A stretch of DNA of 64,000 bases from an uncultured Candidatus Saccharibacteria bacterium. Its GTDB lineage: Bacteria > Patescibacteriota > Minisyncoccia > Phycocordibacterales > UBA9973. Position numbers and translations under genes: made by a program. A model generated the notes under the pieces. It was not told the DNA's origin and did no database searches. It worked only from the letters and a program-made list of their open reading frames with translations. The stretch lies in NCBI GenBank assembly GCA_964646765.1, contig CAZYIA010000002.1, positions 12,760-76,759 of the forward strand, written 5' to 3'. This document shows positions 19,944 to 26,876 of the stretch, piece by piece (position 1 is the first letter of the stretch; the number at the start of each line of letters is the position of its first letter).

Positions 19944-19977
19944 AGCCCCCTCGTGTTTCGTAGGGCGGCTTTTTTTA
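19944..19977. terminator. Hairpin followed by a T-run between convergent genes
   Basis: aaaagccccctcgtgtttcgtagggcggcttttttt. Confidence 0.5.
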
Positions 19978-21345
19978 TTCCTTAATCATTGGAACAGTAT
20001 TTCCGTATTTTTCTTTTATGACTCGAGTGATGACCTCAAGAACATCATTAGAACCAGTCTTAGCCATTTCAGTTTTATCTCCGACAAACTTCTCACTCAC
20101 TGTAAGCACCGTGTTTTTAAGAGTGTTCATAATCTTATTTCCTCCTACACTACTGATGCCGTCTGGCTTAATATCAACTTCAAAAGTTTTTCGTTCTCCT
20201 GTAGGGACTCGAATCATTCCCGTGACGCTTGTTTTTCCAGCATCGCTCGTAAGTGTGTAGCCAAAACCAAAGGTACGAGAGTTGGGTCGGAATGGGAGAA
20301 TGGTAACCCCAGTTGTTTCTTTCTTCGGGTCGCTACTTATTCCCTTTTCAAATCCTTTTTTCAAAAGATCTCGAATTTCTTCGGCTTCGACAATAACTTC
20401 TACTGACTTTTGCTGTTCCTGTTTTGGAGTTTCTATTGGCATAAGCAAAAGCTGTTCGGGTGGCCACTGTTTTACTTTTTCTTTCGGCTTGCGGACACCA
20501 ACTCCTTTTTCGTATTTCGCGATTGTTTCCGCTGAAACTTCAGGAATTTTTTTCTCCTGATCTTTCTTTGGCTCAAGCGCATTCTTAATTGTTTCTGGAA
20601 CTTGTAAGCCTGCGGCTTCAATAGCACGAGTAATTTTTTCTTTAGTGACGGTGCCGTCGGCTATAAGTTTTTCGTAGGTTCCATCTTTGATTGCTGCGGT
20701 TACTTGCCCTACTGTTTCGTAAGCAAAACTAATAGCCTGCTCGGCCTCCTTTTTAGTAGGATGTTGTGTTTCCTTGCCTTGCGAAGTTACATATATAAAC
20801 TTTCCATCCTTTTCCTCTATGTCGCTGAAAAGTTTTGAGTAGTCAGTTGGGCCAGCAACTGTTTCAGTAGCAGTTTCTTGCTTCTCATTCTTTGGTAGAG
20901 TGTTGAGATGTTGTTCTAATTCTGTTTCAGTTCGGAACTTAACTTCGCGGCTCTTTGCGCCTGTATTTTCACCAACAATGCCAGCTTTCTCTAACTGATC
21001 CATTAATCGGCCTGCACGGTTGTAGCCGAGTTTTAATCGACGCTGAATAAGTGAAGTAGAACCCATCTGATTTTGAACAATAACTCGTGCTGCTTCCTCA
21101 AACAGTTCGTCGCGTTCAGAAGTTTCACTACTATTTTCTAAATCTTCCTCAGGTGTTTCTGTTTTAGGAGTAGCAGAATCAGTTCCCTCCTCAGAGTTTA
21201 CGTTCAAAACGATTGGTGTTATTTCTTCCTCTTTCTGAGATTCAGCCGCGCGTTTTGCCTTAAGCATTTCTTCCGCCTTTGCGATCCACTCGAGAGCAAA
21301 TTGTTTATCTTGGGGTGTCATGTTATTTTTTGATTTCCTTCTCAA
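19975..21345 (-). CDS. Lys/Glu-rich protein with an FtsK-gamma (KOPS-binding winged-helix) domain near the N-terminus and no FtsK motor
   Basis: FEEAARVIVQNQMGSTSLIQRRLKLGYNRAGRLMDQLEKAGIVG matches the FtsK gamma consensus (aSiS.lQRrlrIGYNRAarl.d.lE..GiVg). The rest is charged low-complexity/coiled-coil sequence. Confidence 0.6.
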   Translation of the reverse strand: MRRKSKNNMTPQDKQFALEWIAKAEEMLKAKRAAESQKEEEITPIVLNVNSEEGTDSATPKTETPEEDLENSSETSERDELFEEAARVIVQNQMGSTSLIQRRLKLGYNRAGRLMDQLEKAGIVGENTGAKSREVKFRTETELEQHLNTLPKNEKQETATETVAGPTDYSKLFSDIEEKDGKFIYVTSQGKETQHPTKKEAEQAISFAYETVGQVTAAIKDGTYEKLIADGTVTKEKITRAIEAAGLQVPETIKNALEPKKDQEKKIPEVSAETIAKYEKGVGVRKPKEKVKQWPPEQLLLMPIETPKQEQQKSVEVIVEAEEIRDLLKKGFEKGISSDPKKETTGVTILPFRPNSRTFGFGYTLTSDAGKTSVTGMIRVPTGERKTFEVDIKPDGISSVGGNKIMNTLKNTVLTVSEKFVGDKTEMAKTGSNDVLEVITRVIKEKYGNTVPMIKE

Positions 21346-26200: not shown

Positions 26201-26876
26201 GTTCACGAATATTTTTTATACCCAGTGTTGTAACTGCAGTTTCTACGTCTTTAATTTCCTTGTTGTAGCGTGCCAGTAATATATCCCGTTCCTTTTTTAG
26301 ACGAGCTTCTGCTTCTGCGTATGTAAGTTTATCTCCTAAGTTTTCACCTTTAGGACCGCGAATTTTGAATCGTAGATTTGGGTCACCTTTTTTATCGAGA
26401 TCATCTTTTGCTGGAATGGGACCAGTGCAGTTATCTTTATCAAGATGTAAGAAAACACCAGTGTCGGAATATTCTAAGAGGTAGTCTTTTATTTTTCCGG
26501 TATCAATTGCGTGGTTTTCAATTTCATAAAGACTTCCATCAAATTCTGAACCGGGAGTGGATATAAATTCCATTTCTCCCCCAAGTTTTGCTTTAGCGTC
26601 AGCATCAAGGTTATTGAAAATATGCCACTTTAACTTACTAGCTACTTGGTCTAAGGCGATAAGTCGCTCTTGCTCTTCTATAGTTTTATCAATTTCCGCT
26701 TGAATCTTTTCTTTCTCTTTAACATCTGTTTCATCTGCAAATTTCTCATCGAGATCATCAAGTTTATCCCAACATAGCTTAATTTTCTGAGCGAGATTTT
26801 TTTGCTCTCGCTCAACAGCTAGTTTTGTTTTTGGGAGCCCGGTGATAGGCCCAGTTCCAGGGTTTTTAGGACTCAT
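23277..26876 (-). CDS. Giant (1199 aa) coiled-coil protein with a C-terminal FtsK-gamma-like winged-helix domain
   Basis: C-terminus FTDAARIVVETGQGSASLLNRRLNLRSIERANTIIEQLTRAGILE is FtsK-gamma-like. Long K/E-rich coiled-coil segments. It has a Pro-rich tract (PPPVPPPPASGTTSTPGSTGPTNPG) and a GSRGGRGG tract. Confidence 0.55.
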   Translation of the reverse strand: MSPKNPGTGPITGLPKTKLAVEREQKNLAQKIKLCWDKLDDLDEKFADETDVKEKEKIQAEIDKTIEEQERLIALDQVASKLKWHIFNNLDADAKAKLGGEMEFISTPGSEFDGSLYEIENHAIDTGKIKDYLLEYSDTGVFLHLDKDNCTGPIPAKDDLDKKGDPNLRFKIRGPKGENLGDKLTYAEAEARLKKERDILLARYNKEIKDVETAVTTLGIKNIRELAASSKINLTNVKKDAEFFKKEGDTITEFIKITATGSRGGRGGTPKEAAGPFFKTENGSRVPYFEITYMSGIGTPGTKTEQRKLIKKDELAALLRGFKTEKEIKDEETPEATTPEVKLPEPSLERGREVMIEYNDLLLGQNKWNATGPERTEQHQFIEKIEKEIPLAWLEKNLHLYNRMREMVLMEEGPRLTKWRNDRTNQETIFAQIRQNVDGSYVRMAPNAQGVLQGTPISAEEYERLRKDIILLNDELFTLDRTKKKAEYGVLQSEITALEALGNTRTPEQNTELSRKKTQLSQKRSEYVDLLTQEDAFYKKFGATDTEAAHLTKALGHEEKVAQLEEELAVKEPERDALAVKEAAKEAWDLETIVPPLELNRVIENTLTDLFSKNKNVEGVYLVSANPVAQGKGIEVTATIDFNENPDTKITKLLGKVPGVKKHVSAGSSIPVTVKFVIGKGSDGVNSLSVGTDANVFSVAAPGLNKEVLKKLTSDIKDKFQNGYSTDAGPGYKFNREILFGAGRALGKDLSKNRDGAILIENGNIVVIDAKYTEKAIKAIEKEIDTLKKIKPDQRTQEQNDQIEQKTQEILKRQIPKFSADEALSLQTLEREILTLRNEKTTEESNANDELRRALREARLVDRSYRTPPPVPPPPASGTTSTPGSTGPTNPGTVTGPTFTPATPTEIENFVGRVKATDLLDPADFEFYTNNKAEIDAKRIAIAEKEKQEHEQRILDLQNTFTAAGDPGYITTLRSLVGDQKVDDLLASIKTVDTNAFIAAAEKLIEETPITIEKGSRTEIEQRWAGEVAALNIPTVADLTGKSIIWHGPRVTITSAPLDKGGTYEFQTAEGMTISFNKNDEETTDYLLYQIGKTQAQEDALAALNKKYTEELRQFDEAEKEKSERDPLFTDAARIVVETGQGSASLLNRRLNLRSIERANTIIEQLTRAGILETTQGTVGRAVKISSLTELEDHLKTIS

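Follow-up and report, generated by a model that had tools for sequence, protein, structure and literature searches.

Large charged proteins with motor-less FtsK-type gamma domains in a lineage-restricted gene cluster of a Candidate Phyla Radiation bacterium

A 64,000-nucleotide stretch of the genome of an uncultured Candidatus Saccharibacteria bacterium (contig CAZYIA010000002.1, positions 12,760–76,759; the whole stretch is hereafter the window) contains three adjacent genes, A, B and C, which are predicted to encode soluble, acidic, highly charged modular proteins. Two of the products, A and C, each carry an FtsK-type gamma domain, the winged helix through which the DNA translocase FtsK reads chromosome polarity, and no FtsK motor was found in the cluster or elsewhere in the window. 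The gamma domain of protein C retains the residues associated with reading and with recombinase activation, and that of protein A has diverged at them. Judged from its distribution across sequence databases, the trio is an accessory cluster restricted to one small clade of Paceibacterota (Parcubacteria, Candidate Phyla Radiation (CPR)) and does not belong to the core cell-cycle machinery.

Organisation and composition of the cluster

The genes and the promoter-like site ahead of them are arranged as follows.

23277–26876, minus strand: gene A, a 1199-aa soluble acidic protein, isoelectric point (pI) 5.3, with an orphan body and a C-terminal divergent FtsK-gamma winged helix
21323–23272, minus strand: gene B, a 649-aa soluble acidic protein, 27% lysine plus glutamate (K+E), with no match in domain libraries
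19975–21345, minus strand: gene C, a 456-aa open reading frame (ORF) in which an N-terminal helix and acidic linker are followed by a canonical FtsK gamma, a small module of beta-beta-beta-alpha type and a C-terminal module that is conserved
26886–26913, minus strand: promoter-like site, sigma-70-like, TTGACT, 16-nt spacer and TG-extended TAAAAT (TGgTAAAAT), ending ~10 nt before the ATG of gene A

The probable start of gene C is ATG 21321 (giving 448 aa), as placed by public gene calls on an identical contig, and with this start the three co-directional genes are separated by only 4 nt and 1 nt. Given these small gaps and the promoter-like site ahead of gene A, transcription of A, B and C as one unit is plausible, in agreement with the three-gene operon proposed in an earlier note on this DNA. 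The promoter call is a consensus match only, in a region where the count of such sites equals the shuffle expectation; the position of the putative site implies a very short or absent leader for gene A.

The lysine- and glutamate-rich character previously described for the cluster, including its 649-aa middle gene, is borne out by K+E contents of 20–27% in A, B and C and by charged residues amounting to 31–36% of each protein, compared with 15–28% in six neighbouring proteins checked. All three have a pI of 5.2–5.7, and no hydrophobic or transmembrane segment or signal peptide was detected in A, B or C (maximum hydropathy over 19 residues, KD19, ≤0.99). Plus-strand AT skew is strongly negative (−0.14 to −0.26) across window positions 20000–28000 because purine-rich Lys/Glu codons lie on the coding (minus) strand, and the same codon bias accounts for the apparent strand-skewed, T-rich words that rank highest in the 64 kb.

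Two gamma domains with different reading residues

Both gamma domains exceed the gathering cutoff (30.6 bits) of the Pfam FtsK_gamma model (PF09397), protein C by a wide margin (91.9 bits, E 2e-26) and protein A more modestly (44.9 bits, E 9.4e-12), and they lie where the earlier note had placed them, near the N-terminus of the 456-aa protein and at the extreme C-terminus of the 1199-aa protein.

20941–21117, minus strand: gamma domain of protein C, aa 77–135, carrying RRLKLGYNRAGRLMDQLE, with the R1289 equivalent, the GYNR loop and R/D/E at positions 1300/1303/1306
23322–23507, minus strand: gamma domain of protein A, aa 1124–1185, with a 1-residue insertion in the helix2–helix3 loop, R1300 replaced by T, E1303 kept as E and E1306 replaced by T

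A search of Protein Data Bank (PDB) sequences with A, B and C gave matches limited to gamma, the domain of protein C aligning to Pseudomonas aeruginosa FtsK gamma (E 3e-11), and the winged-helix fold of the protein A domain superposes on solved gamma structures at 1.2–1.6 Å. In Escherichia coli FtsK, the XerD-activating peptide of gamma comprises residues 1289–1297 (RQFRIGYNR), of which R1289 is critical, and the same surface binds the FtsK-orienting polar sequences, KOPS (PMC5052618); KOPS recognition needs R1300, E1303 and E1306, the triple mutant being KOPS-blind (PMC2680272). The corresponding positions compare as follows.

E. coli FtsK: loop RQFRIGYNR; positions 1300/1303/1306, R/E/E
Bacteroidota-type FtsKs compared: loop (K/M)LKLGYNR; R/D/E
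Protein C (456 aa): loop RRLKLGYNR; R/D/E
Protein A (1199 aa): loop RRLNLRSIER, 1-residue insertion; T/E/T
r1157 (protein A orthologue): loop RKLRINFDK; E/N/T
P0015 (protein A orthologue): loop RRLALGAKSMER, 2-residue insertion; K/S/E

The reading positions of the protein C domain are those of the Bacteroidota-type FtsKs compared, to whose gammas it is 68–71% identical; one canonical 881-aa FtsK, encountered through a chance pattern match on a Bacteroidota-like metagenome contig (L089, 7586–10231), has a gamma domain and C-terminal tail 71% identical to those of protein C. More broadly, the protein C gamma shows 57–71% identity to true FtsK gammas as against 34–48% to A-family gammas, and 46% to the gamma of protein A itself; being nearer to true FtsKs than to its neighbour, it is not a recent copy of that neighbour. 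Across the three lineages of the A family, the fold is kept, and the R1289 equivalent (R1149) is the sole invariant among the reading and activating positions. On residue conservation, the KOPS-binding label given to both domains in the earlier note appears justified for protein C only, whose gamma is predicted to be competent for both known activities, KOPS-type DNA binding and Xer contact; it does not extend to protein A, whose domain, with T/E/T at the reading positions and an insertion in the loop, would be either re-specified or degenerate.

Absence of an FtsK motor

That these domains sit on proteins lacking an FtsK motor, as first proposed, is upheld by several searches. Pfam and NCBIfam models match the gamma region alone in the cluster proteins; when two full-length FtsKs were run by tblastn on the window together with the DNA flanking it on the left, only the two gamma regions were hit, with no remnant of a disrupted ftsK; and a RecA-type alpha/beta motor with Walker A/B motifs (PF01580 FtsK_SpoIIIE, FtsK_alpha) was not found in the same DNA. 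The FtsK_4TM membrane anchor is lacking from A, B and C, which have no hydrophobic segment. Proteins A and C thus have in common with FtsK/SpoIIIE gamma (PF09397; 2J5P, 2VE8/2VE9, 5DCF) a winged helix that scores above the Pfam threshold, but the cluster differs from FtsK in lacking both the four-transmembrane anchor and the alpha/beta motor, and in the placement of the protein C gamma, which lies in the N-terminal third of the protein, not at its C-terminus; protein A departs further through its loop insertion and the loss of R1300 and E1306, whereas protein C keeps both the activating peptide and the KOPS positions. An annotated ftsK is present in the cultivated CPR bacterium TM7x (PMC10768705).

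Architecture outside the gamma domains

Beyond gamma, Pfam, NCBIfam, PHROGs and PADLOC contain nothing that matches A, B or C, including no SMC or RacA family (Pfam, NCBIfam), and profile–profile comparison (hhalign) found nothing common to A and B and only the gamma domain common to A and C. Conserved regions were delimited by comparison with the few relatives described below.

25224–25850, minus strand: most conserved A-family block, aa 343–551, a predicted helical bundle, beta hairpin and long helices with dense invariant columns
24165–24296, minus strand: VDRSYRTPP motif and Pro/Thr-rich linker, aa 861–904, dividing the two conserved halves of protein A
19978–20496, minus strand: C-family C-terminal module, WPP...ILPFRP...KEKYGNT, present without gamma also in P0014 (59% identity) and r789

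AlphaFold2 (AF2) modelling of protein A predicts long helices alternating with small beta modules, with a predicted local distance difference test (pLDDT) score of ~65–81 over aa 420–550 and a disordered Pro/Thr linker (aa 861–904, pLDDT <50, no secondary structure); the block at aa 343–551 has no detectable homologue and no specific structural match in the PDB or BFVD. The model of protein C (pLDDT 42) is unusable except for a small beta-beta-beta-alpha unit; alignments of 2–4 sequences limit structure prediction for the cluster in general. The earlier description of the trio as filament-like coiled-coil proteins is rejected: a home-made heptad heuristic with GCN4 as positive control, which is not a standard coiled-coil predictor, identified a single 34-residue stretch in protein A (aa 459–492) and nothing in B or C, a yield that shuffled sequences also reach, and the AF2 secondary structure is mixed alpha/beta.

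A possible module of ~78 aa with the pattern Y-G-F-x-L-x-L-x-N-P ... R-F/Y-x-L-I-S-P-x-G occurs at aa 572–649 of protein B (21326–21560), at aa 130–209 of protein A (26250–26489) and at ~6740–6983 of the related locus L005. Pairwise similarity is best between B and the L085up ORF (E 5e-11), followed by B and L005a (E 1e-5) and by B and A (E 0.01–0.03). Profile methods did not confirm this beta-beta-beta-alpha module, a hidden Markov model (HMM) built from hand-picked instances recovering its own seeds alone and so being circular, and the sharing of such a module across the proteins is tentative.

Relatives and distribution

A word-indexed search of 5.8 billion proteins yielded one true relative of protein A (P0002/r1157; 1157 aa, 37% identity), and HMMER, run exhaustively with the gamma-less body of A over 1.84 billion representatives, added only P0015 (1149 aa, 43% identity) and a 60-aa fragment; both full relatives sit at the syntenic site. 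No relative of A was found among GTDB representative genomes, and none of A or B on viral contigs. Protein B matched only itself in the word-indexed search, its sole relative being a partial ORF found by genomic context on L085 (L085up, E 5e-11, aligned to B aa 479–639), with additional similarity between the C-terminal ~78 aa of B and L005a (E 1e-5). For protein C, the word-indexed search gave one fragment-like relative, and a metagenome scan with the protein C profile recovered FtsK gammas only; P0014 (245 aa, 59% identity) and r789 share its C-terminal module and have no gamma domain.

In related lineages with readable sequences, A and a C-like gene, or B and a C-like gene, co-occur at the same site, and at a third locus an A orthologue is followed by two further genes. 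On these metagenomic data, the cluster appears confined to three or four uncultivated lineages, which limits its general importance. The notion of a conserved trio acting as a system has therefore not survived: gamma is absent from r789 and P0014, B has one partial relative, and the site is empty in most Paceibacterota. The companion suggestion that the proteins were previously undescribed stands for their non-gamma parts, for which P0015 and the 60-aa fragment were the only additions among 1.84 billion representatives, and fails for stand-alone gamma domains, which are known in phages (PMC8190038, PHROGs).

A variable site near the presumptive origin

The cluster fills an interval bounded by two conserved genes, with a convergent gene at its distal end.

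27139–28308, plus strand: LysM + M23 peptidase gene, one border of the variable site
16728–18650, minus strand: uvrD/pcrA-type helicase gene, the other border
18770–19909, plus strand: probable membrane protein, 379 aa, convergent, with hydrophobic segments at aa 38–59 and aa 347–375, between the trio and uvrD

The window belongs to the Patescibacteria/Paceibacterota, and the best identities of its uvrD product are 56–58%, including to a Candidatus Lloydbacteria metagenome-assembled genome. In most Paceibacterota, M23 and uvrD are 100–250 bp apart, and only the nearest relatives of this lineage have genes in the gap. An opposite-strand protein follows the cluster in every lineage seen and is of membrane type where the sequence is readable (L085dn, E 6e-22). 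The contents of the gap, by locus, are listed below.

Window: A, B and C, then the convergent membrane protein
L002: 554 aa, 1157 aa (gamma) and 789 aa
P0015 locus: 600 aa, 1149 aa (gamma), 471 aa and 683 aa
L005: 624 + 890 aa
L021: 776 + 691 (+141) aa
L011: 800 + 1193 aa
L022: 489 aa
L018: 190 aa

The fillers of L005, L021, L011, L022 and L018 are charged (KE 14–26%, highest in L005a, L021a, L022a and L018a), have no Pfam match above threshold and no gamma domain, and are non-homologous to the trio except for the ~78-aa module linking B to L005a. Fillers in these sister lineages are also mutually unrelated, at 190–1193 aa, and the site resembles a hot-spot at which giant orphan genes collect. 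A comparison of the window with L002 gives 57% identity for the M23 protein and 37% for protein A, from which the cluster is seen to evolve fast.

To the left of window position 1 (L086, 11671–16419) lie jag (R3H), yidC, rnpA and rpmH, then dnaA and dnaN, ~2–5 kb from the window start. With dnaA and dnaN so placed, the window starts beside the presumptive origin, and the trio is ~22–29 kb from it. Most genes between 1 and 33 kb of the window are on the minus strand, pointing to dnaA.

Proposed role and alternative explanations

The explanation we favour, and hold only tentatively, is that A, B and C are lineage-specific cytoplasmic scaffolds or adaptors that dock on DNA, or on a protein partner, by means of an FtsK-type winged helix that has been captured. 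The gamma domain of protein A, having diverged in the loop that reads KOPS and contacts XerD and in the recognition helix, could serve as a docking module, generic or re-specified, for DNA or for a protein partner. Protein C, in this lineage only, would have acquired a near-canonical gamma domain, which may bind G-rich, KOPS-like DNA or an Xer-type recombinase in the fashion of FtsK gamma. One KOPS is bound by three gamma domains, and gamma monomers bind weakly (PMC3384302), so that DNA reading by protein C would probably need oligomerisation, which long helices could supply. In the most likely mode of action, the gamma domains would tether to the chromosome large charged proteins that act as scaffolds or spacers. 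DNA-anchoring adaptors that combine a small DNA-binding domain with a long spacer include Bacillus subtilis RacA and E. coli MatP, and the likeness lies in an extended, charged and partly helical protein that bears a small domain of helix-turn-helix type at one of its ends and is encoded near the origin; however, the cluster proteins have no sequence or structural kinship with RacA or MatP, have no significant heptad coiled coil, are acidic and are narrowly distributed.

Several observations weigh against a scaffold docked to DNA. DNA binding is something that we infer; the acidic pI of 5.2–5.7 is unlike that of typical nucleoid proteins; AF2 confidence is low outside two regions; and a scan of the 64 kb for strand-skewed, KOPS-like 7/8-mers, which was underpowered, gave none that was significant after multiple-testing correction. 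Moreover, gamma is dispensable in the C family (P0014 and r789 are without it), and in sister lineages the site is occupied by unrelated gamma-less proteins, so the basic function of the cluster may be unrelated to DNA. Explanations other than those set out in this section keep about a third of the probability.

An improbable alternative is that protein C, and perhaps A, modulates Xer recombination by allosterically activating an XerD-type recombinase independently of the FtsK motor. Activation of this kind has precedents in E. coli, where gamma fused to XerC or XerD activates Xer (PMC3130261, PMC5052618), and in XafT of TLC-phi (PMC9226527). The minimal activating peptide is nearly intact in protein C (RRLKLGYNR, compared with RQFRIGYNR in E. 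coli), including the critical R1289, the equivalent of which is invariant even in the divergent A family, and an Xer-type recombinase is encoded 14 kb away.

40726–41643: tyrosine recombinase, 231.6 bits (archaeal XerA cutoff, 220), short of the equivalog cutoffs for XerC and XerD

This enzyme, however, passes the archaeal XerA cutoff only, finds its best PDB matches in archaeal XerA, and carries D-A in place of E183-E184 of XerD, so that E184, the salt-bridge partner of R1289, is missing; modulation of Xer is weakened as an explanation because of these features. Recombinases of the XerA type work independently of FtsK. Furthermore, C-like proteins from related lineages have no gamma domain, the large non-gamma bodies have no link to recombination, and there is no similarity to XafT.

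Two further explanations draw circumstantial support only. In one, which we consider distinctly unlikely, the proteins are effectors exported through a nearby type IV secretion system (T4SS)-like apparatus, the gamma domain of protein C being aimed at the KOPS/XerD machinery of the bacterial host of a presumed episymbiont. A T4SS-like cluster (PrgI, TraC-like, VirB4/TraG P-loop, T4SS pilin; window 279–8138) does lie 12–20 kb away, the proteins evolve fast in a variable site (37% identity compared with 57% for M23), and the identity of 68–71% to Bacteroidota-type FtsK gammas would suit such a mimic. The T4SS-like cluster, however, is conserved in Paceibacterota that do not have the island, A, B and C have no secretion signal, and neither PADLOC nor PHROGs provides a supporting match; PADLOC defence-system models matched none of A, B and C, and gave only a marginal AbiEi hit (E 0.0075) on the neighbouring membrane protein. 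The set of FtsK gammas compared is also small and biased, and horizontal origin is unproven.

The other, to which we assign a similarly low probability, is that the cluster is cargo or a remnant of a mobile element or prophage, an integrated piece without function for the host. Several PHROG families of 254–355 positions and 221 phage records match through gamma alone, one of the latter under a gene annotated as a sliding clamp. Phage gamma ORFs have been published, with a role described as unknown, as has a small terminase with an N-terminal gamma domain in Bacillus phages Sam46 and Sam112 (PMC8190038), the latter fusion also being a structural match. The motor-less gamma proteins of phages (PHROGs 13700, 6152, 6576, 36563, 22882 and 4212) likewise use gamma as a portable module on non-translocases, and the M23–uvrD site is variable between close lineages. 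The phage proteins, however, are ~250–355 aa and phage-encoded, whereas the gamma proteins of the cluster are 456 and 1199 aa, chromosomal and at a syntenic site, and nothing is common to the two groups outside gamma, the PHROG matches covering the gamma segment only. Nor were an integrase, terminase, capsid or other phage genes, or flanking att-like repeats, detected in or beside the cluster; relatives of A and B are absent from viral contigs, and the same chromosomal position with conserved flanks recurs in three lineages.

That A, B and C are decaying pieces of a duplicated or disrupted ftsK, or spurious ORFs, is already largely refuted and very improbable: the gamma domain and C-terminal tail of protein A do stand at the extreme C-terminus, as in FtsK, and its BLAST alignment to FtsK does reach ~40–70 residues upstream of gamma, but that upstream similarity is not significant by itself (E 0.3–0.75 against five sequences), no Walker-type motor similarity exists in the window or left flank, the ORFs run for 456–1199 codons in DNA of 40–42% GC, and long blocks are conserved in the A family across three lineages.

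Other features of the window

Window positions 279–8138 hold the T4SS/conjugation-like cluster, with PrgI-like and TraC-like proteins, a VirB4/TraG P-loop ATPase (4358–6193), a protein with a T4SS-pilin domain (1908–3314) and unknown proteins of 540, 332 and 250 aa. It is followed at 8190–15352 by three large proteins of 1111, 947 and 313 aa without a Pfam match, of low charge and Gly-rich, which are kept beside ksgA at 13–19 further loci of Paceibacterota; for the 313-aa protein, a weak local similarity to the gliding protein CglD was noted. TrmB-family regulators of ~250 aa are present as three paralogues within 13 kb (47582–48355, 55459–56223 and 59649–60398), and a gene of HU type is present near 58.3 kb (L087, 4674–4946). 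A CCA-adding/poly(A) polymerase-family gene is located at 51897–53456; its longest ORF (TTG start at 53426) overlaps a tRNA-Gly(GCC) gene on the same strand (53385–53456), and its true start is therefore probably further downstream.

Significance

The gamma domain of FtsK is the textbook reader of chromosome polarity and trigger of dimer resolution, and nearly all work on it has dealt with the domain as a component of the pump. Motor-less gamma proteins were already known from phages; the new elements here, as judged from the genes themselves, would be the chromosomal, syntenic setting in a CPR bacterium, the large orphan carriers, and the pairing of a canonical with a degenerate gamma in one putative operon. 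The cluster shows that the portability of gamma extends from phages to cellular genomes, and its adjacent genes offer a natural comparison between a reading-competent and a reading-altered domain. The fixed intergenic site, repeatedly filled with unrelated giant charged proteins, may interest the study of CPR genome evolution more widely.

Should DNA or Xer binding prove true, the cluster would hint at how the chromosome is organised or resolved in CPR bacteria with reduced genomes. A bolder proposal, to which we give little credence at present, is that an FtsK-type gamma is used outside a translocase on a cellular chromosome, with protein C as a motor-less KOPS-like reader or Xer switch and protein A tethering or orienting origin-proximal DNA, or else that the proteins are exported mimics of host FtsK gamma. 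If a tether, reader or switch, or an exported mimic, were indeed what these proteins are, the cluster would be the first cellular system in which the reading of chromosome polarity is uncoupled from DNA pumping.

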